64,000 nt of DNA from Parcubacteria group bacterium (GTDB lineage: Bacteria > Patescibacteriota > Minisyncoccia > Phycocordibacterales > 21-14-all-47-15). Of the stretch, positions 8,674-64,000 are shown in pieces (position 1 is the first letter of the stretch; the number at the start of each line of letters is the position of its first letter). Made by a program: the position numbers and the translations under genes. The notes under the pieces were generated by a model. The model did not search any database, was not told the origin of the DNA, and saw nothing but the letters and a program-made list of their open reading frames with translations. Location of the stretch: contig JACOYO010000003.1 of the NCBI GenBank assembly GCA_016181845.1, forward strand, positions 16,185-80,184. Reading direction: 5' to 3'.

Positions 8674-8711
8674 AAAAACCGCTATTCCAATATACTGGAA
8701 TAGCGGTTTTT
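8672..8711 (+). terminator. intrinsic terminator (bidirectional)
   Basis: aaaaaaaccgctattccaatatactggaatagcggttttt. Confidence 0.6.
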
Positions 8712-9573: not shown

Positions 9574-9592
9574 ATGGACATCCGATGTCCAT
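9574..9592. repeat. palindrome atggacat-ccg-atgtccat overlapping the UDG stop codon
   Basis: Core ggacatcNgatgtcc is shared with 63635-63661. Confidence 0.5.
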
Positions 9593-10227: not shown

Positions 10228-10260
10228 ATTTGTATCGTAGCACAAACCAAACATGAATAA

Positions 10261-10309
10261 CTTGGAGGTCGAGACTTGGAGGCTCAACCTCCAAGTCTCG
10301 ACCTCCAAG
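10261..10309. repeat. 49-bp perfect palindrome (22-bp arms) in a divergent promoter region
   Basis: cttggaggtcgagacttggagg-ctcaa-cctccaagtctcgacctccaag. Confidence 0.6.
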
Positions 10310-10396
10310 TGATTGCTCCACATAAAAAGCTGTGCTACACTGCCGGTTTAGATAGAAAGTCTTTTGTCATTATCAACAACAAGATGGAGGAGTGTG

Positions 10397-13504: not shown

Positions 13505-13589
13505 TTTACCCTGAATTCCAGAATTAATTGCAACACTCATGCGGCAAAACACAGCGTCTTTACAAAGCTTACAAAGGGCTGCTTGGTTT

Positions 13590-13639
13590 ACTTAGTGGTT
13601 GAACCTCTCAGTGAAAGACTATGCCAGTATACTGGCATA
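13590..13639. repeat. composite dispersed repeat: acttagtggttgaacc... palindrome (R2) next to the tatgccagtatactggcata palindrome (R1)
   Basis: The same R2+R1 juxtaposition recurs at 46704-46785. Confidence 0.6.
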
Positions 13640-13822
13640 CCATCTGACCTCTATGATATTCCGCTCGCGAAGCGGAAACGGATTGCCGTCTTTATGGTTT
13701 TTCTTCTTGCGCGTACTTGCATACTTGGTAGCTCAACTGCTAAATCAAGTGTTGCGATTAATTCTGGAATTCACCTACCATGTCATTGATAATTATCACC
13801 TTTTGGCTTACACTTGATATAT

Positions 13823-20413: not shown

Positions 20414-21748
20414 TCATACACTCATCTCTATCAGCTTGTTCATCTCAACAGCATATTCAAGTGGCAGTGCTTTCACAATCGGCTCAATGAATCCGCCCAC
20501 CGCGAGCCGCACCGCATTTTCTTCGCTGAAGCCGCGGCTTTTGATATAAAAAAGTTCATCGTCGCCCAATCTCCCGACGCGCGCCTCGTGTGAAATATCC
20601 GCGGTTTGACTTTCGTCTTTGATAGATGGGTAGGTATCGGCCGATGACTCATTATCTAAAATAAGCGAATCGCACGACACCGATGAGCGCGCATTTTCTG
20701 TTTTCGGCAACACACGCACCAATCCGCGATAAACCGCCGTCCCGCCTTTGGTTGAAATTGATTTTGAACGAATCGTGGAAACCGTATCGGAAGCCACGTG
20801 TACCGCTTTCGCCCCAGTATCTTGGATTTGCCCTGAAGCGGCGAGCACAATGCTTAAACTGTCTGATTTCGCACGCTTTCCCAAAAGTACGGATGACGGA
20901 TAAAGCATGGTCACCGCGCCTCCCATATTACCGTTTATCCACTGTATTTCAGCGTCTTCAAACACCAGCGCGCGTTTTGTATTCAGATTGTACGTATTTT
21001 TTGACCAATTTTCAACGCTGATGTATTTCATTTTTGCGCCCTTTTTTACAAAAAGCTCAACACAGCCTGCGTGGAGAGACGAGCGCGTGTACGACGGCGC
21101 CGAACATCCTTCTATGTACGACACTTCCGAACCTTCATCTGCAATAATGAGCGTATGCTCAAATTGCGCCGACGCTTCTTTGTTCATTCGAAAATACGCC
21201 TGGAGCGGAAGCTCCACTTTCACTCCATGCGGCACATAGATAAACGTGCCACCGCTCCAGAGCGCCGCGTGAAGCATGGTAAATTTATGGTCGTGCGCCG
21301 GCACACATGTGGTCATGAAATATTCTTTCACCATTTCCGGATATTTTTCAAGCGCCGTGTCCATATTTTCAAAAATCACTCCCTGTGCCTTGAGTGATTC
21401 TTTGAGATGGTGATAGACAACCCCAGAATCATACTGCGCGCCGGCACCGCTTAATGCGTGCTTTTCCGCTTCCGGAATACCGAGCTTTTCAAACGTCTCT
21501 CTGATTTCAGACGGCACTTCATCCCACGACGTTGTCTCTTTTGAGCCCGGAGCCGTAAAATAGCTCATGTTTTCAAAATCAAGCCCGCTTAAATCGGGCC
21601 CCCACGTTGGCAATGTGGTTTTTTGATATAACTCGTACGCTGTAAGCCGTTTTTCAAGCATCCATTTCGGCTCTTTTTTGAGCGCGGAAATATGCCGAAT
21701 CAATTCTGGAGAGAGCTTTTTGCTTTGGTCTTTCGTCATTATTGACAC
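20414..21748 (-). CDS. sufB: Fe-S cluster assembly protein SufB
   Basis: 444 aa; the SufB/SufD beta-helix region is conserved (…ENARSSVSCDSLILD…). Confidence 0.85.
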   Translation of the reverse strand: MSIMTKDQSKKLSPELIRHISALKKEPKWMLEKRLTAYELYQKTTLPTWGPDLSGLDFENMSYFTAPGSKETTSWDEVPSEIRETFEKLGIPEAEKHALSGAGAQYDSGVVYHHLKESLKAQGVIFENMDTALEKYPEMVKEYFMTTCVPAHDHKFTMLHAALWSGGTFIYVPHGVKVELPLQAYFRMNKEASAQFEHTLIIADEGSEVSYIEGCSAPSYTRSSLHAGCVELFVKKGAKMKYISVENWSKNTYNLNTKRALVFEDAEIQWINGNMGGAVTMLYPSSVLLGKRAKSDSLSIVLAASGQIQDTGAKAVHVASDTVSTIRSKSISTKGGTAVYRGLVRVLPKTENARSSVSCDSLILDNESSADTYPSIKDESQTADISHEARVGRLGDDELFYIKSRGFSEENAVRLAVGGFIEPIVKALPLEYAVEMNKLIEMSV

Positions 21749-21819
21749 TATACCTAAAATATGACGAATTGTAAATAAACTACACTAAAATTATTAACAT
21801 ATCTTGTCTACTATGCCAG

Positions 21820-21843
21820 TATACTGGCATAGTGAAGATAAGA
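21820..21843. repeat. R1 palindrome copy (actatgccagtatactggcatagt)
   Basis: 24-bp perfect palindrome between sufB and rpoD. Confidence 0.6.
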
Positions 21844-21881
21844 ATATATTATTAAGAAATATGTTCTTTTAGATACGCGTG

Positions 21882-24933: not shown

Positions 24934-24966
24934 AAGTTATCCACAACGAAGGAGGAACCTTTGTAA
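24934..24966. repeat. 30-bp dispersed repeat carrying a perfect DnaA-box sequence (TTATCCACA) in the dnaG/rpoC intergenic region
   Basis: aagttatccacaacgaaggaggaacctttgtaa is identical to the 3' end of uvrB (36822-36852, inverted). A degenerate copy lies at 46799-46828. Confidence 0.55.
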
Positions 24967-24974
24967 AAACCTAT

Positions 24975-32354: not shown

Positions 32355-33599
32355 TTATATATTTTTATTTTGCATTCTTCGCTTTCGATGAAAACTTATG
32401 GCAAACCGATGGGCTTCGGCATTTGCAAAGAGGATATCAGCTTCGTGCCGTATCGCGAGCACGCGGTCGCCGATGATTTTTTTCGGGCGATGACGCTCGT
32501 CTTTGACCACGCCGACCACAGGGATTGCCACGCCAGCCGAAACAAGCGCGTGCTTCGCCGCATTCACTTGCGCGGTTCCGCCGTCAACAACAATCAAACG
32601 TGGCAGTGGCCACTCGGCATGCGCAAGCCGTCGCGAAAGAATTTCTGACAGCGCGCGCGTATCATTCACCCCTTCAAAACTCTTTATATTAAATTTCCGA
32701 TACTCATTTTTTTGTGCCTCGCCGCCCTCAACAACTGTCATCACGCCAACAGACGCTGAACCTGAAAAATGCGCCACGTCATACGCTTCTATTTTGAAAG
32801 TAGAATATGAAAAGTTGAGAGTCGGCGTATTTTTGATAAGAGAAACATCTTGAATATGTTTCAGCGCAAAAATAGTTTTTTTAATTTCATGCGCGCGTTC
32901 AAATGCGCGGTGTTTTGCCGCTTCTCGCATCTCCCGCTCCAATTTTTTAATAAGCATGCCTTTTTTTCCTTCAAAAAAAAGTTTCAGATTTTGTATGATT
33001 TTTGCGTATTCTTTTTTTGAAATCGCTCCAGTGCATACGCCAGGGCATAACCCTATTTGAGTATTAAAACAGGGCTTTTCTTGCCTAAGACGGCATACAT
33101 CGCGAAATGGAAAAATTTTTCTCACAATTTTCAACGCTTCTCGAAGCTGGTTGCCATATGTAAAAGGACCGAATACGTCTTTGACTTGGACGTCGGGTTT
33201 CCAAGTTAACTTGGAAACCCGACGTCCAAGTAGTTCACGTTCCCGCGCCAGAAGCACTCGCGGAAAATCTTCGTCGGTAATGACGACATAATTAAAGCTT
33301 TTGTCGCTCTTTTCTTTTGAATTGTATTTCGGTTGGTGTTTTTTTATCAGCGCCGCTTCAAGAATGAGCGCTTCAAGCACTGAATCGGTTTCTACCACGC
33401 GCACATCACGCGCTTGTTCGAGCATCTCCGCAATAATTGGCCCGCGGGCGCTCATGAGATCCGACGAAAAATAACTTCTTATCCTATCACGAAGCGATGT
33501 CGCCTTACCGATATACAAAATATCTTTTCGCGCGCCCAAAAACTGATACACTCCAGGCGTATCCGGCAAATTTATTTTATTTAGTCGATTTTTTTGCAT
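32355..33599 (-). CDS. uvrC: excinuclease ABC subunit C, short form (GIY-YIG plus RNase-H-like endonuclease domain, no C-terminal (HhH)2)
   Basis: N-terminal GIY-YIG (PGVYQFLG...ILYIGKA) and a C-terminal VVDGGTAQVNAA... domain. 414 aa. Overlaps the uvrA stop. Confidence 0.8.
   Translation of the reverse strand: MQKNRLNKINLPDTPGVYQFLGARKDILYIGKATSLRDRIRSYFSSDLMSARGPIIAEMLEQARDVRVVETDSVLEALILEAALIKKHQPKYNSKEKSDKSFNYVVITDEDFPRVLLARERELLGRRVSKLTWKPDVQVKDVFGPFTYGNQLREALKIVRKIFPFRDVCRLRQEKPCFNTQIGLCPGVCTGAISKKEYAKIIQNLKLFFEGKKGMLIKKLEREMREAAKHRAFERAHEIKKTIFALKHIQDVSLIKNTPTLNFSYSTFKIEAYDVAHFSGSASVGVMTVVEGGEAQKNEYRKFNIKSFEGVNDTRALSEILSRRLAHAEWPLPRLIVVDGGTAQVNAAKHALVSAGVAIPVVGVVKDERHRPKKIIGDRVLAIRHEADILFANAEAHRFAISFHRKRRMQNKNI
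33185..33230. repeat. 46-bp perfect palindrome inside the uvrC coding sequence, in frame
   Basis: cttggacgtcgggtttccaagtt|aacttggaaacccgacgtccaag encodes LGRRVSKLTWKPDVQ. The cttgga(g/c)gtcg...ccaag theme is shared with 10261-10309. Confidence 0.6.
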
Positions 33600-36244: not shown

Positions 36245-36296
36245 TAATTTTTCCTGCGACTATGCCAGTATACTGGCATAGTCGCAGGAAAAATTA
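36245..36296. repeat. 52-bp perfect palindrome carrying the R1 core (tatgccagtatactggcata)
   Basis: taatttttcctgcgactatgccagta|tactggcatagtcgcaggaaaaatta. It makes the track ORFs 36016..36297(+) and 36244..36432(-) end in the same peptide. Confidence 0.7.
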
Positions 36297-36513
36297 AGAA
36301 ATTAAACAAAAAGCTAAATCCCCCGCTCTTTGCCGTAGAGGGGGTATACCGCGCTTTATATATTGATAACGTATCATCTTTCGACAAAAAAGCAACAGCA
36401 ACAGATGGAGTCATTGTCTGATTTGTCCACACCTTTATTTTTATTTATGCCGGAAAATTGATAGAATAAAAAGACAATCGTAATATACATTCGGTCGAAT
36501 ATTATAAAATTAA

Positions 36514-36723: not shown

Positions 36724-36821
36724 TCCGCTTTTTTCTATATTAAAAATCGCCTCCTGGCCATGCGCCGCGGGGGCGTTTTTTAATTCTATCTCCCACTCTT
36801 CACATCAAAAAACCTTTATAT

Positions 36822-38861
36822 TTACAAAGGTTCCTCCTTCGTTGTGGATAACTTCTGCAATATCAAAAGTTCATCGCGCAAAAGCGCCGCGGTTTCAAAA
36901 TCAAGGATTTTTGCCGCCGCGTTCATTTGTTTTTCTTTTTCGGTGATTATTTTTTGAAGTTTTTTTGGATTCGCCGCGAATTTTTCTTTATCAATTACAA
37001 GCACCGCATTCACGGCTTTCGCGTGTTCGCTTTGCAATGCTTCGGTAATATCGTGGATCTTTTTCTCTATGGTTTTTGGAGTAATTCCATGTTTTTTATT
37101 ATAAGCAATCTGCAATGCTCTACGGCGATTGGTTTCGCTTATCGCCCGCTCCATGGAGCCAGTAGTAGTATCGGCATAGAGAATAACCCGCCCGAAAACA
37201 TTGCGCGCCGCGCGCCCGATAATCTGGACAAGCGATGTTTCGCTCCTCAAAAACCCCTCTTTGTCTGCATCCAAAATACCGATAAGCGACACCTCCGGCA
37301 AATCAAGCCCTTCCCGCAAGAGATTCACACCGACAATCACGTCAAATTTTCCTTTTCTAAAATCGGTGAGAATTCCGATGCGTTCCATGGTTTTAATTTC
37401 ACTGTGCAAGTATTCGGCTTTGATTTTTTTCTCTTTGAGATACGCACTCAAATCTTCAGCCATTTTTTTGGTGAGCGTCGTCGCAATCGCACGGTATCCT
37501 TTTTTAATTTCTTTTTCCGCTTCGGTAATAAAGTCGGCAATCTGTCCTCGATACTTCCCTTTTTCTATCACTCCGCGCACTTCCACTTCGGGGTCTGTTA
37601 ATCCGGTCGGGCGGATAATTTGTTCAACCACTTGCTTACTTTTCTCGCGTTCATAATTTGCCGGCGTCGCCGAAGTAAAAATTACTTGCCCGATGCGCTT
37701 TTCAAATTCATGAAATTTAAGCGGGCGATTATCCTGCGCCGAGGGCAGACGAAATCCATATTCAACGAGCGTTTTTTTGCGCGCGGCATCTCCTTCATAC
37801 ATGCCGCCGATTTGCGGCACGGTTACGTGCGATTCATCTATGATGATGAGAAAGTCTGGCGTTCCGTCTTTGTGATGCGGGAAATAAGAGAGTAGCGTGT
37901 CGGGCGGTTCTCCAGGCGCTTTGCCAGAAAAATGCCGCGAATAATTTTCAATGCCATTGCAATATCCGACTTCTCTGATAAGGGCGATATCATGATTAGT
38001 ACGACGCTTGAGTCGTTCGGCATCGAGCATCTTGCCCGCCGCTTCAAGTTCTTTCAGCCGCTCTTTTAATTCCGCTTGAATGCTTTTCACCGCGATAGCC
38101 CGGCGTTTTTCATCGGTCACAAAGTGTTTCGCCGGAAAAAGAAAAATCTCCCGCGGCTCACTAATAATACTTCGCGAGATAGCATCTAATTGAATTATGT
38201 TTGTTATCCGCCCGTCCGAAAGTTCCAGACGATAGAGCACTTTCTCATGCGGCGGCATCACCTCAACGACATTGCCAATAGCGCGAAAAGTGCCGGTGGT
38301 TACATCGGCATTAGTGCGTTCATAATAAATCTTGATAAGTTTACGCATCAAGTCGGCGCGGCTTATCCGCGTCTCGCGCGCAATCTGAAGATGTTCTTCT
38401 TTGTATTCTTCCGGGCTTCCTAAGCCATAAATACAAGATACCGAAGCGACAATAACCACATCGCGGCGTGTCAAAAGCGCCTGCGTGGACGCGTGGCGAA
38501 GCCGGTCAATCTCTTTGTTGATTTGCGCGTCTTTTTCAATATAGGTATCGCTTATCGGCATGTACGCTTCCGGCTGATAATAATCGTAGTAAGAAACAAA
38601 ATAATGCACCGCGTTATTGGGGAAAAATTCTTTATACTCTTGTGCGAGCTGTGCCGCTAGTGTTTTATTATGCGCGATAACGAGCGTCGGCTTCCCTATC
38701 GCCGCAATAACATTTGCCGCCGTAAACGTCTTCCCCGAGCCGGTCACGCCCAAAAGCGTCTGGTGGCTCATCCCTTTTTTCAAACCTTCTACGAGCGACA
38801 AAATTGCCTTCGGCTGGTCTCCTGCTGGCTTATATTCACTTCGTAATTTAAACGATTGCAT
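36822..38861 (-). CDS. uvrB: excinuclease ABC subunit B
   Basis: Helicase motifs (GVTGSGKT, DESH), a C-terminal UvrC-interacting coiled coil (…LRDELLILQKL…) and the typical 679 aa. Confidence 0.95.
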   Translation of the reverse strand: MQSFKLRSEYKPAGDQPKAILSLVEGLKKGMSHQTLLGVTGSGKTFTAANVIAAIGKPTLVIAHNKTLAAQLAQEYKEFFPNNAVHYFVSYYDYYQPEAYMPISDTYIEKDAQINKEIDRLRHASTQALLTRRDVVIVASVSCIYGLGSPEEYKEEHLQIARETRISRADLMRKLIKIYYERTNADVTTGTFRAIGNVVEVMPPHEKVLYRLELSDGRITNIIQLDAISRSIISEPREIFLFPAKHFVTDEKRRAIAVKSIQAELKERLKELEAAGKMLDAERLKRRTNHDIALIREVGYCNGIENYSRHFSGKAPGEPPDTLLSYFPHHKDGTPDFLIIIDESHVTVPQIGGMYEGDAARKKTLVEYGFRLPSAQDNRPLKFHEFEKRIGQVIFTSATPANYEREKSKQVVEQIIRPTGLTDPEVEVRGVIEKGKYRGQIADFITEAEKEIKKGYRAIATTLTKKMAEDLSAYLKEKKIKAEYLHSEIKTMERIGILTDFRKGKFDVIVGVNLLREGLDLPEVSLIGILDADKEGFLRSETSLVQIIGRAARNVFGRVILYADTTTGSMERAISETNRRRALQIAYNKKHGITPKTIEKKIHDITEALQSEHAKAVNAVLVIDKEKFAANPKKLQKIITEKEKQMNAAAKILDFETAALLRDELLILQKLSTTKEEPL

Positions 38862-44105: not shown

Positions 44106-46037
44106 TTAATGCGCAATCAGCTGGTTGGCAATCATGAATATATTGCCGAGCAATGACGCGCTTTTGGCATTTGATTGCGGCGCTTCGGATGGAGGTGGCG
44201 GAGCAATACTGCCGTCTAAAGGAGCGGTAAATCCTGTTGGTTCCGTTTGTGGCGGAGGTGGCGCTATCTGTTGCTGTTCTTGCTGGAGCATCATTCCGCT
44301 ATCTATTGGTTGTATGATTGGCATTATTGAAGTGCGCTCTCCTTCCTGAAAACCTTGTTCTGTTTGCGGCATTTGCGGTATAAATTTTTCCCCTTCTATT
44401 CTCATCATATTGTCGTCTCCCATCATCGGTCTTTCAAAAGATTGCCGGTCGTCAAATTTCTGCTCGCCTTCAAAAATCCGCTGTTGTACATCGCGCTGAA
44501 ATTCTTCAGGATTCTTAAAATGTTCCAATGACGGCATCCCTTCGCGCACGCATCGCTCAATCGTCCCGCCGATGTCAGACGGCGCGCGACTGCTATCAAG
44601 CGCCCCTTTCACGCAATCACGCGCGGATTCCGGCACAGCATTGAGATTAAAATGTTCTTGAAATCCTTTTTTGATTTCGCGCTCGCGAATATTCCTCTCA
44701 TCATCTTTTCCTTTCATCATTCCATTCTCTCCATGCTCAAAGCCGCCATTAAAATCTTCCAGCATATTGCCTTGCATGTCTCTGAAATCGCCTCGCGGTT
44801 GCTCGCCGCTGAATTGTTCAAAACATCCGCGTATTTCTGACTCCGCTTTTTGGCGTTCTTCTTGAGACATCTTGCCCATATTTTGCAATCCTTCTTTGCC
44901 GATGCGTTCAGTAACGCAAGATTCCACCTCCGGAGGCATGTTTCCCATAAACCCGCCTTCACCATTTTCAGGTCCTCCCATTCCGCCGAATTGTTCAAAA
45001 CATTTTTGCGCGGTGTCGCCAATATTTTTTCCTGGCATCTTGGTGCCGGCGCGAATGCCTTCAATCACGTCAGACCCGAGAGCGTCTTTTAAGCATTGCG
45101 ACACTGGAGCAGGCGCTTCATCAAGCATTTTTCTAAATTCTCCGACATGGCGGTTAATATTTTCAAGCTCATCTGGAGGTATCAGCCCATGCTCTTGCGC
45201 AAACGCAAAACAGGCATCCTGATGCGCGGGGTCTTCGCAATATGTTTGACATTCTTCGCGCTTACAGCCACCGGGGCCTTTGCCACCCGTTTTCCTAGCC
45301 ATTTCAGCGTCTTTTGCAGAAACAAATCCCGCTTTTTCACCAAAAGCAAGACATTCTTCAAAATGAGAGTCGTCGTTGCAGTATGCTTCACATTCTTTTT
45401 TGCCTTTGCATCCGCCCGGCATTTGTCCGCTCTTCATAAGGGGGGCGATACGCCTTGCTTCCGCAAGTTCTTCGGGAGGAATAAATCCGGCTTTTTCAGC
45501 AAACGCCAAACACTCATCTATGTGCGCGCCGTCTTCACAATATGCCTGACATTCTTTTTTCCCCTTACAACCCCCGGGCGGCACCGCGCCGTCTTTCAGC
45601 GCTTTTGCCACTTGTTTTGCTTCTTTTAATTCATCGGGCGGAATAAGACCGTGTTTTTCTCCAAACGCGACGCACTCTTCAATATGCGCCACATCTTCGC
45701 AATACGTATCGCAAGCCCCCTTTGAAGCACAGCCGCCAGGCCCGCTTGTTTCTCCAAGTTGCGCGAATTTCTTTGCCTCCCGTAATTCATCTGGCGGAAT
45801 TAAATTATATTTTTCTGCAAAAGAAAGACATGCATTGACATGCGACAAATCGTCACAATACGCACGGCACGCTTTTTCGTCCTTACAATCCCCCAATTCT
45901 GAAACCGGAAATACGATGTCTTGTGCCGTAAGCGCCTGCGCGGAAGAAACGCCAACTGCTCCGATGCCGACAATAACCGCTATAAAAAAAATCGCGTATC
46001 TCGTAAAAAGAAAAATATTTTTGTGCCGCATAAACAA
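44106..46037 (-). CDS. secreted protein with five tandem 4-Cys modules (about 49 aa each) and a long acidic, Gly/Met/Gln-rich, Pro-terminated tail
   Basis: Signal peptide ...GAVGVSSAQA. The repeat consensus is approximately GGCKGKKEC.AYCEDxxHI.EC.AFAEK.G.IPPDEL.EA, with C-x5-6-C-x3-C-x8-C spacing. Confidence 0.55.
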   Translation of the reverse strand: MFMRHKNIFLFTRYAIFFIAVIVGIGAVGVSSAQALTAQDIVFPVSELGDCKDEKACRAYCDDLSHVNACLSFAEKYNLIPPDELREAKKFAQLGETSGPGGCASKGACDTYCEDVAHIEECVAFGEKHGLIPPDELKEAKQVAKALKDGAVPPGGCKGKKECQAYCEDGAHIDECLAFAEKAGFIPPEELAEARRIAPLMKSGQMPGGCKGKKECEAYCNDDSHFEECLAFGEKAGFVSAKDAEMARKTGGKGPGGCKREECQTYCEDPAHQDACFAFAQEHGLIPPDELENINRHVGEFRKMLDEAPAPVSQCLKDALGSDVIEGIRAGTKMPGKNIGDTAQKCFEQFGGMGGPENGEGGFMGNMPPEVESCVTERIGKEGLQNMGKMSQEERQKAESEIRGCFEQFSGEQPRGDFRDMQGNMLEDFNGGFEHGENGMMKGKDDERNIREREIKKGFQEHFNLNAVPESARDCVKGALDSSRAPSDIGGTIERCVREGMPSLEHFKNPEEFQRDVQQRIFEGEQKFDDRQSFERPMMGDDNMMRIEGEKFIPQMPQTEQGFQEGERTSIMPIIQPIDSGMMLQQEQQQIAPPPPQTEPTGFTAPLDGSIAPPPPSEAPQSNAKSASLLGNIFMIANQLIAH

Positions 46038-46351: not shown

Positions 46352-46703
46352 ATTATATTTAGTATAGCAAGACGGTTTTTCTATTCAAGAAAAAGTTATG
46401 CACATGAGCCACACTCAAAACTCCAATTGCAAAAAAGCCCCGCGAAAGGGCTTTAGAATGTGTCTGTCTATGATACCTGTCACCAGCAGAAAGCGTGGGG
46501 ATTTTAATCCTGTGTACGCAGAGAATTATCCCCGCTTTCTGCCGGTGAATGTCCGGCAAAAAATAACCTTATTCTTTATTCTTATTTGGGAACACCAGTT
46601 TTATATTGTATCATAACTCATTCACTCCACAAGTGCATAACTTGTAAATTCAAGAATACATGACTCTTACAAAGTCATACAAATGGTAGCGCTTTGTAGA
46701 TGG

Positions 46704-46785
46704 TATGCCAGTATACTGGCATAGTCTTTGTCACTTAGTGGCTCAACCACTAAGTTGATACTGAGAGGTTGAGCCACTAAGTTTG
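46704..46785. repeat. composite dispersed repeat: R1 palindrome (46704-46723), then R2 palindrome (46733-46755), then a partial R2
   Basis: tatgccagtatactggcata ... acttagtggctcaaccactaagt ... ttgagccactaagt. Confidence 0.6.
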
Positions 46786-46910
46786 TCAAAACAAAGAAAA
46801 CAAAGGTTAGCCCTTTGTTGGAGATAACTTTTTGACGACGCGGAAGCAAAAACATCTTTTATAAGCGGCGCGCGACAATACGCCACGCCGCAAAAAAAGA
46901 AATTTTAATT

Positions 46911-59059: not shown

Positions 59060-59099
59060 TTCGGAGCCTAAGTTGTTCTAACTGCCCGACAGGGATTCG
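59060..59099. repeat. 40-bp direct repeat copy 1 containing a 19-bp copy of the tRNA-Gln 3' end
   Basis: tcggagcctaagttgttctaactgcccgacagggattcg; identical copy at 59250-59289. Confidence 0.6.
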
Positions 59100-59249
59100 G
59101 TCACAAATAATTTTTTTACAAAAAATTTTCGCGACCCCGGCTCGGCCTCGACTTCTCCGCTTCGCTACGAAGTCGGCTTCGCGGCCTGCGCCTTTCTCAT
59201 CCCTGCGGCGCAGAGAACACCGAGAACACCCAAGTCTCCAATGCTCCGC

Positions 59250-59289
59250 ATCGGAGCCTAAGTTGTTCTAACTGCCCGACAGGGATTCG
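59250..59289. repeat. 40-bp direct repeat copy 2 (tRNA-Gln 3'-end fragment)
   Basis: Identical to 59060-59099. An inverted TTCGAATCCCTG fragment also lies at 59369-59380. Confidence 0.6.
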
Positions 59290-59430
59290 AACATTACATG
59301 TTCAGTACAGGTTTCCCATTTTTTCGCCATGCTTGCGAGCATGCCTCAAAAATATGGGAGAACCTTTTCGAATCCCTGACGAAAGTGCCATCGGGCACTT
59401 TCTTCCGTCATTTCTTCGCTTCGCTCCGAA

Positions 59431-59501
59431 CTGCCCGACAGGGATTCGAACCCCAATTAACGGCTTCAAAGGCCGCTGTCCTACCATTAGACGATCGGGC
59501 A
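59431..59501 (-). tRNA. tRNA-Gln (anticodon UUG)
   Basis: Manual fold of the reverse complement. Acceptor UGCCCGA/UCGGGCA has U1:A72, as in bacterial tRNA-Gln. D-stem GUCU/GGAC; anticodon stem GCGGC/GCCGU with loop CUUUGAA; T-arm UGGGG-UUCGAAU-CCCUG; discriminator G; CCA not encoded. Confidence 0.7.
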
Positions 59502-59506
59502 ACAAA

Positions 59507-63322: not shown

Positions 63323-64000
63323 TCAAACTATCTCTTTCATATCGTTTGTCAAATGAGCGCGGACTATCGTTTCTACCTCACGAGCGTCTTTTGCTTCCAT
63401 CAATTTCGTGCGCAATTCTTTTGCCCCATCAAACCCATTCACATACGCTTTGTAATGTTTTTTCATAATGGCAAAATTTTTATGCGCGCCGAGTTCTTTT
63501 TCAAAAAGTTTTGTATGCTCAACCATCACACGAAGTTTTTCTTCAATTGTAATCTCTTTTTGAATTTCCTTTTGTTTCGATAAACCTTGCGATATATCGC
63601 AAGGTTTTGATTTTGATTTTTTATCATCAGTCAGAATGTTGGACATCGGATGTCCAACATTTGCGAAAAGCCACGGGTTGCCGAATATTGCGCGTCCAAA
63701 CATAACACCGTCGGCGCCAGTCGCGCGCGCTTTTTCTTTAGCGTCTGCCATGTCTTTCACGTCGCCGTTTCCGATGATGAGCGCGCCAGTTCCCTTCGCA
63801 AGATCCACCGCACGCGCAACCCGATCCCACTGCGCCGGCGCTTTTGACATTTCTTTTCTCGTGCGCGCGTGAATCGTAAGCGCGGCGATACCGGTTTCCA
63901 AAAGTGCCGGAATCCACGCTTCCGTTTCGTCTTTGTTGTAGCCCACGCGCGTCTTAACCGACACCGGCAAATCACCGGCGCCCTCTTTTGCGGCATAAAT
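63323..64000 (-). CDS. dus: tRNA-dihydrouridine synthase, C-terminal part (5' end beyond window)
   Basis: ...VKTRVGYNKDETEAWIPALLETGIAALTIHARTRKE... is the Dus TIM-barrel and FMN region. Frame is open to the window edge. Confidence 0.75.
   Translation of the reverse strand: MYAAKEGAGDLPVSVKTRVGYNKDETEAWIPALLETGIAALTIHARTRKEMSKAPAQWDRVARAVDLAKGTGALIIGNGDVKDMADAKEKARATGADGVMFGRAIFGNPWLFANVGHPMSNILTDDKKSKSKPCDISQGLSKQKEIQKEITIEEKLRVMVEHTKLFEKELGAHKNFAIMKKHYKAYVNGFDGAKELRTKLMEAKDAREVETIVRAHLTNDMKEIV
63635..63661. repeat. 27-bp palindrome inside the dus coding sequence, in frame
   Basis: aatgttggacat-cgg-atgtccaacatt encodes NVGHPMSNI. Its core ggacatcNgatgtcc is shared with 9574-9592. Confidence 0.55.

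Follow-up and report, generated by a model that had tools for sequence, protein, structure and literature searches.

R1, a dispersed palindromic repeat family of Parcubacteria and a putative site of a TrpR-family protein

The window analysed here, a 64-kb stretch of a Parcubacteria genome, shares synteny with Ca. Lloydbacteria (L005) and the Candidate Phyla Radiation (CPR) contigs L016, L028, L022, L011 and L039. Its UvrA matches MBI2046069.1 at 100% identity and a Ca. Lloydbacteria protein at 96%, and it encodes short forms of RpoB (1053 aa), RpoC (1219 aa) and UvrC (414 aa). The window contains four exact copies of the 20-bp perfect palindrome TATGCCAGTATACTGGCATA, the core of the repeat designated R1, together with a fifth, diverged copy bearing three mismatches to this core (Table 1); 100 dinucleotide shuffles of the same window yield no R1 match. 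A sequence-only reading of this DNA had already counted the four exact copies and placed all of them in intergenic DNA, both of which hold true, and the fifth copy is intergenic as well.

Copy 1 is situated with an M16 peptidase gene on one side and a DUF541 gene on the other. Copy 2 lies between rpoD, whose stop codon (21882) is 48 nt away, and sufB, whose -35 box (21775-21770) is at a distance of 34 nt; its earlier placement at 21820-21843 was off by about 8-10 nt. Copy 3 is the flawless 52-mer that the same reading had described, consisting of two spacer-free 26-nt arms with 100% complementarity, and the uvrA ATG (36225) begins 19 nt downstream. It contains the 24-mer ACTATGCC..GGCATAGT (36259-36282), shares the 24-mer ACTATGCCAGTATACTGGCATAGT at these positions with copy 2, and folds as RNA with -44.5 kcal/mol (z = -12). 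Copy 4, located in a 1.2-kb spacer, belongs to a hairpin of -49.7 kcal/mol. Copies 1 and 4 have in common a composite of about 64 nt, mutually inverted, in which R1 is combined with a second palindrome family (CACTTAGTGG..CCACTAAGTG). A second dispersed palindrome family, CACTTAGTGGTTGAACCACTAAGTG, occurs five times in the window (13587, 39442, 40961, 46730 and 49948) and is fused to R1 twice. The diverged copy, R1b, looks like a bidirectional intrinsic terminator and contains the symmetric change G4->T / C17->A, which matches the R1b subfamily of other genomes.

Table 1. Palindromes, repeats and further features of the 64-kb window (positions counted from its first nucleotide)
Feature	Position	Strand	R1 core	Description
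R1b copy (TATTCCAATATACTGGAATA)	8674-8711		8683-8702 (3 mismatches)	A-run/stem/T-run hairpin, convergent genes on either side
R1 copy 1	13586-13645	+	13620-13639	Core joined to half copy of the CACTTAGTGG..CCACTAAGTG palindrome family (composite unit)
R1 copy 2	21810-21833		21812-21831	Perfect 24-bp palindrome; imperfect extended hairpin at ~21796-21849
R1 copy 3	36245-36296		36261-36280	Perfect 52-bp palindrome in the uvrA leader
R1 copy 4	46698-46790	-	46704-46723	Core joined to large hairpin of the CACTTAGTGG family
Hairpin upstream of uvrA	36306-36344	-		CCCCCTCT..AGCGGGGG (CCCCC..GGGGG) with T-run
R2-like palindrome	63582-63607			26-bp perfect palindrome (..TTGCGATATATCGCAA..) inside dus CDS insertion; resembles palindromes bracketing distant TrpR-like genes
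Palindrome AATGTTGGACATCGGATGTCCAACATT	63635-63661			Perfect palindrome inside dus CDS insertion; related to 9574-9592
dus insertion	63582-63661	-		31-aa in-frame insertion
uvrC palindrome	33184-33231			48-bp perfect palindrome (ACTTGGACGTCGGGTTTCCAAGTT/AACTTGG...) inside uvrC CDS; related to 51-bp palindrome at 10260-10310
Inverted repeat	24934-24967 and 36821-36854			34-nt exact repeat; last nine codons and stop of uvrB copied into rpoC-dnaG spacer
tRNA-Gln repeats	59061-59108, 59251-59298, 59430-59502			tRNA-Gln and two partial copies of one gene end in 39-nt exact repeats
sufB promoter	21737-21775			TTTACA-17-TATAGT
Tandem repeat	45310-45579			159-bp repeat (53 aa) inside 643-aa protein
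ORF of 529 aa	17043-18632	-		N-terminal CxxC...CxxC zinc ribbon; no Pfam family

Palindromes are also present inside two coding sequences of the window. When compared with the 72%-identical Dus of Ca. Lloydbacteria, the dus gene contains an in-frame insertion, which resembles the way in which Rickettsia palindromic elements enter genes, and the uvrC palindrome falls in a segment where UvrC is 8 aa longer than the 87%-identical protein of L041 and locally divergent from it. The 34-nt repeat derived from the end of uvrB includes TTATCCACA, which is DnaA-box-like. The tRNA-Gln repeats are typical of integration scars, with no integrase nearby. In the sufB promoter, which is kept in L011, only 7 nt separate the -10 box from the ATG; the sufB mRNA is probably leaderless, with ATG 21739 rather than GTG 21748 as the true start. 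The 643-aa protein with the tandem repeat matches neither Pfam nor NCBIfam.

Restriction of the 20-mer to this window had been named earlier as an argument against a repeat family. The exact core recurs outside it, in three contigs of one Patescibacteria MAG and in Ca. Lloydbacteria, and also in 29 contigs of groundwater metagenomes with a GC content of 27-44%; many further R1 copies are found in related genomes. Viral contigs, phages and plasmids contain no match to the exact core, and a phage, plasmid or viral origin was rejected on this ground. A match in an Anaerolineales contig of 54% GC (L001), which is without the AC..GT flanks and adjoins a GntR gene, probably reflects chance or a GntR operator; about 0.5 chance matches to a 20-mer would be expected in 596 Gb. 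A sequencing or assembly artefact was likewise rejected, as the copies have unique flanks, are all intergenic and are carried by independent assemblies. The R1 sequence was found in no paper of the literature searched.

R1 takes three forms, namely solo copies, perfect palindromes of 38-52 bp with unrelated arms, and tandem arrays with a unit of 70/73 bp. The long perfect palindromes account for 7 of the 55 non-redundant sites and extend the core by 9-16 bp. The arrays (L010, L014, L019 and L029) repeat the complete unit nearly identically in up to eight copies, and their spacers are homologous to the inter-R1 spacers that flank a TrpR-like gene on either side in L022. TIGR arrays are composed of 36-nt units with spacers of 8-12 nt (PMC12045711). 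A CRISPR or TIGR array was rejected for the 70/73-bp arrays, in which the "spacers" are conserved and the whole unit is repeated.

Dyad symmetry is kept across R1 variants. Positions 4/17 are paired as GC in 36 cases, UA in 10, AU in three and GU in nine (other combinations, two), and positions 8/13 as GC in 40, GU in 10 and AU in three (other combinations, seven); the one-sided variants are transitions, and the complementarity of the R1 flanks is above that of all 500 shuffles. Several symmetric variants occur together in one genome. For such coexisting variants, independent half-site recognition alone is insufficient, and hairpin selection or self-templated correction fits equally well. Together with the long perfect arms, the symmetric variants suggest that hairpins or cruciforms form and undergo self-templated correction, beside recognition by a protein.

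The R1-rich genomes carry copies of R2 too, any second protein for R2 being hypothetical. Seven R1-rich contigs (L009, L014, L015, L022, L023, L027 and L033) also carry the TACGATATATCGTA palindrome, of the type that brackets distant TrpR-like genes, and a ACCAAGGGCGGTCCTTGGT hairpin similar to the GTGAAGGACCGTCCTTCAC family of the window.

Close relatives differ by gain and loss of R1 copies. In the uvrA leader, R1 is absent from L041, whose UvrA is 96% identical, and from L042 and L043; the CCCCCTCT..AGCGGGGG hairpin upstream of uvrA is common to the window and these three relatives, and about 75 extra nucleotides, containing the 52-bp palindrome, are present between this hairpin and the uvrA ATG in the window only, with no direct repeat flanking the insertion. 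The hairpin is preceded by a promoter-like sequence and could represent either a leader/attenuator or a small RNA. The spacer between the PDDEXK gene and mazG contains R1 in L028, and the orthologous spacer of the window is 49 nt long and without R1; in the suf operon of L014, R1 is absent upstream. At other places the repeat is kept: the copy 3' of rpoD is shared by the window, L011 and L022, with a stem extension that differs from one to the next, and flanks the TrpR-like gene in the latter two, and a copy 3' of a cell-wall hydrolase gene occupies the orthologous place in the window (8683) and L016. Short-read assemblies break at R1, and the Logan contig L006 starts or breaks exactly at the dyad axis. 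Dispersal in several Patescibacteria genomes, presence or absence between close relatives and tandem arrays support the earlier idea of a REP/MITE-like element, and R1 probably belongs to a lineage-specific set of dispersed, insertion-prone palindromic repeats of Parcubacteria.

A gene encoding a protein of 133-143 aa has R1 clusters on both sides in L011, L012 and L022, which were fetched only via R1. A protein search with its product returned 69 close relatives, all of them "hypothetical proteins" of Patescibacteria, and in the loci fetched only via the protein the R1-type sites almost exclusively adjoin the TrpR-like gene. L036/L037 has seven sites upstream and four downstream of this gene, with one degenerate site elsewhere in 20 kb, and 11 of the 12 R1-type sites of L036 are no more than 600 bp from it. 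All three sites of L038 are at the gene (two upstream and one nine nucleotides past the stop codon), with none in the rest of the 15.7 kb, and L039 has one R1-type site on either side. The gene is bracketed by palindromes in ten of ten related genomes, these cases coming from one protein-based search and three R1-based contigs, and its distant homologues (L044-L047) are bracketed by other 20-bp palindromes. The 64-kb window itself contains no TrpR-like gene or remnant. Its 529-aa ORF was considered as a fused TrpR-like domain and rejected, since a weak tblastn match was unconfirmed and the hhalign probability was 0.4%.

The palindromes of the distant homologues (36-54% identity) are built on CGATATATCG: CTACGATATATCGTAG, present twice, in L044 (41% identity); ACTACGATATATCGTAGT, upstream and downstream as 42-bp palindromes, in L045 (53%); TTCGATATATCGTAA, upstream and downstream, in L046 (36%); and TAGTGCGATATATCGCACTA, with two copies upstream and two downstream, in L047 (54%). 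The palindrome sequence changes as the TrpR-like protein diverges.

The linked protein is predicted to have a TrpR fold. It shows weak matches to the Pfam family Trp_repressor, a profile search retrieved the TrpR-like structures 3kor, 3frw and 3g1c, and with an AF2 model (pLDDT 80) the best 19 Foldseek matches in the PDB are all TrpR or TrpR-like (TM 0.66-0.77). Its N-terminus carries a conserved MPHVS and its C-terminus is extended, both features being missing from TrpR and HisR. It has neither HUH/Y1 motifs nor a recognisable catalytic domain able to move DNA. Members of the family have a predicted recognition helix of the LSxTTTxKLQ, STTNRY or STVART type. At E<=1e-3 the family numbers 2,149 representatives, of which 1,128 remain at E<=1e-10. 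TrpR-family factors such as TrpR and HisR/YerC recognise 20-bp palindromes with a lineage-specific consensus (PMC9413887).

R1 is most likely the binding site of the TrpR-like protein, since in related genomes it always brackets the gene of this protein and changes with it. We regard it as probable, with moderate confidence, that R1 is a dyad-symmetric site of a TrpR-family protein that has been dispersed as a REP/MITE-like element; the tight linkage to a gene for a TrpR-fold DNA-binding protein also lends weight to the earlier suggestion of a protein- or RNA-binding site. A homodimeric helix-turn-helix protein of about 133 aa with a TrpR fold would recognise the 20-bp core, presumably as double-stranded DNA by analogy with TrpR and HisR on 18-20-bp palindromes. 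R1 may have spread by a copy-and-paste or recombination route, in which solo copies such as the four in the window would be derivatives of gene-flanking copies, and the palindrome arms may have been lengthened by intrastrand template switching. The tandem arrays are built from the same R1-plus-spacer modules as those flanking the TrpR-like gene. Each transcribed copy would fold into a very stable hairpin, and R1 at gene ends could therefore also serve as a stem-loop at the 3' end of the RNA or as an insulator. A hairpin of -44 kcal/mol in the uvrA leader would be combined with a putative protein roadblock 19 nt ahead of the start codon, and R1 may affect the expression of uvrA or sufB. Against the binding-site reading, many copies are located at gene 3' ends or between convergent genes, where an operator role is not obvious. 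The absence of a TrpR-like gene or remnant from the window, the symmetric variants that coexist in one genome and the R2 copies of R1-rich genomes also count against it.

A further possibility, which we put forward tentatively and consider rather unlikely, is that the arrangement palindrome-(TrpR-like gene)-palindrome is itself a novel type of self-propagating or domesticated CPR element, in which a non-catalytic HTH protein and its palindrome take the roles that belong to RAYT and REP in Proteobacteria. If so, the TrpR-like family (>1,100 representative clusters) would diversify together with its palindromes, and gene-less derivatives (solo copies and arrays) would colonise intergenic DNA and gene leaders and rewire expression. 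No description of the R1 family or of a CPR TrpR-like gene bracketed by co-varying palindromes was found in the literature searched.

It is unlikely that R1 copies are primarily RNA structures (terminators or hairpins stabilising 3' ends) whose shared sequence is a by-product. With regard to gene ends, an association with which had been suggested as a check, most clusters follow a gene 3' end (about 18 in tandem and six in convergent contexts, against two that are possibly divergent), and this favours a role in RNA, as do the terminator-like shape of the 8683 copy, the covariation of the R1 flanks, two sense-strand G.U pairs in the rpoD-adjacent copy of L022, and the region 3' of rpoD, where three genomes keep the core and have stem extensions that differ yet remain complementary. 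When the G.U pairs were assigned to the strand of transcription, about 11 cases were consistent and three were not; this is suggestive, but the cases are too interdependent to be relied upon. The four canonical copies of the window are without a U-run, and R1 is found directly after a normal terminator in L017 and at 36320-36344; the canonical copies are thus not simple intrinsic terminators. Moreover, an exact stem of 20-24 nt is conserved across genomes of 27-48% GC, which a terminator does not need, and no Rfam family was matched by R1 in Rfam 15, the search that had been proposed, where tRNA-Gln was the only match of the window.

Also doubtful is that R1 is simply the operator of a conserved regulon of stress or DNA-repair genes (such as uvrA, sufB and an oxidative-stress defence gene), controlled by a transcription factor and without element-like behaviour. 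In its favour, R1 is a perfect 20-bp dyad, the site centre precedes the start codon by 42-52 nt at uvrA, at dus in L005 and at the TrpR-like gene in L011, L022 and L038, and some neighbours are stress genes (clpP, relA, rmuC, ahpC and MPG). The genes whose 5' end faces R1 are uvrA, sufB, DUF541, dus, clpP, relA, rmuC, dnaB, yqeY, leuS, gdh, a ZIP transporter gene, secDF, miaA, ahpC, L25 and mazG, many of which (leuS, gdh, secDF, miaA, L25, ZIP transporter, yqeY and mazG) make this a heterogeneous set; the uvrA site is missing in three relatives, including the one with 96% identical UvrA, and the suf site in L014. A fixed regulon is unlikely because the facing genes are heterogeneous and the uvrA site is not conserved, and six clusters between convergent genes and arrays of up to eight copies also speak against it. 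The apparent link to core operons noted earlier is incidental, because the neighbouring genes are heterogeneous across copies. A LexA/SOS box, prompted by the position at uvrA, was rejected, as no matching motif was found in the literature searched and the site is absent before uvrA in relatives; a sigma-70 promoter with TATACT as -10 box was rejected for want of a usable -35 box.

That R1 is a classical REP/REPIN, moved as single-stranded hairpins by a RAYT (Y1 HUH transposase) encoded elsewhere, appears improbable. R1 is indeed a multi-copy extragenic palindrome with presence/absence polymorphism, forms doublets spaced 22 nt apart in L012 and L036, and has one-sided variants that are transitions, which a hairpin could accommodate by G.T pairing. 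The TnpA-REP/RAYT partner that had been suggested is not borne out, however: the window encodes no RAYT/Y1 transposase and no integrase, a search of the window and about 330 kb of related loci turned up no Y1 transposase, no transposase Pfam family is present among the window genes, and phmmer with IS200/IS608 queries retrieved no IS200/IS608-like protein from the window or 47 related loci. The gene bracketed by R1 clusters encodes a TrpR-fold HTH protein instead of a Y1 enzyme, and the R1 palindrome is perfect, not imperfect, and without a GTAG-type head.

It is very improbable that R1 organises the chromosome as a parS-like centromere or a replication-related iteron: identical palindromes are clustered within tens of kb, one cluster is near dnaA in L002, and the tandem arrays of palindrome-containing units resemble plasmid centromeres such as sopC, but no ParA/ParB gene adjoins any cluster, many unrelated housekeeping contigs carry copies, the window has no GC-skew switch, and the presence of copies varies among close relatives.

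The genomes of CPR/Patescibacteria are very small and regarded as poor in repeats and regulators, and to our knowledge very little is known about their gene control. If R1 is the site of the TrpR-type protein, the two constitute a testable protein-DNA pair in organisms beyond culture, and natural insertions, such as that in the uvrA leader, allow effects on expression to be measured. If the whole protein family (>1,000 clusters) is always bracketed by co-varying palindromes, it would be a large natural data set on the evolution of a recognition code. R1 is also a marker that explains assembly breaks at particular places in these genomes.

R1 resembles REP-RAYT systems in its layout and the operators of TrpR and HisR in its form, although it lacks defining features of each. 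The dRS3/NIMEs of Neisseria and the BIMEs of E. coli, in which a dyad repeat of about 20 bp alternates with units of 50-150 bp in intergenic arrays, appear similar to the 70/73-bp R1 arrays. dRS3 is the target of IS110-type recombinases and of phage integration. The sequences and hosts are unrelated to those of R1 and no enzyme of this kind was seen here. Rickettsia palindromic elements and bacterial MITEs (reviewed in PMC10969869) are, like R1, palindromic insertions that differ between relatives, and other palindromes of the window are inserted in frame in dus and uvrC. R1 itself was seen only in intergenic DNA and is much shorter than the Rickettsia elements. As compared with MITEs, the palindrome provides inverted repeats, but neither a target-site duplication nor a parent IS with transposase was found, and the sole gene-bearing version of R1 carries the gene of an HTH protein.

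The operators of TrpR-family proteins (E. coli TrpR and the HisR/YerC of Firmicutes; PMC9413887) share with R1 a dyad of 18-20 bp, a lineage-specific consensus and the TrpR fold, and R1 upstream of the TrpR-like gene fits autoregulation. They differ in that R1 is also present right after the stop codon of its own gene, at 3' ends of unrelated genes and in arrays, and is not retained ahead of orthologous genes. The REP/REPIN-RAYT systems of Enterobacteria and Pseudomonas likewise consist of short, extragenic, multi-copy palindromes, variable between relatives and sometimes paired or clustered, the clusters of which flank a single-copy gene whose product presumably recognises them. In the present case the flanked gene encodes a TrpR-fold HTH protein, the hosts are Patescibacteria, and no transposition chemistry can be proposed; R1 and the TrpR-type protein may represent a new host-repeat partnership that is akin to REP-RAYT and different in its chemistry.
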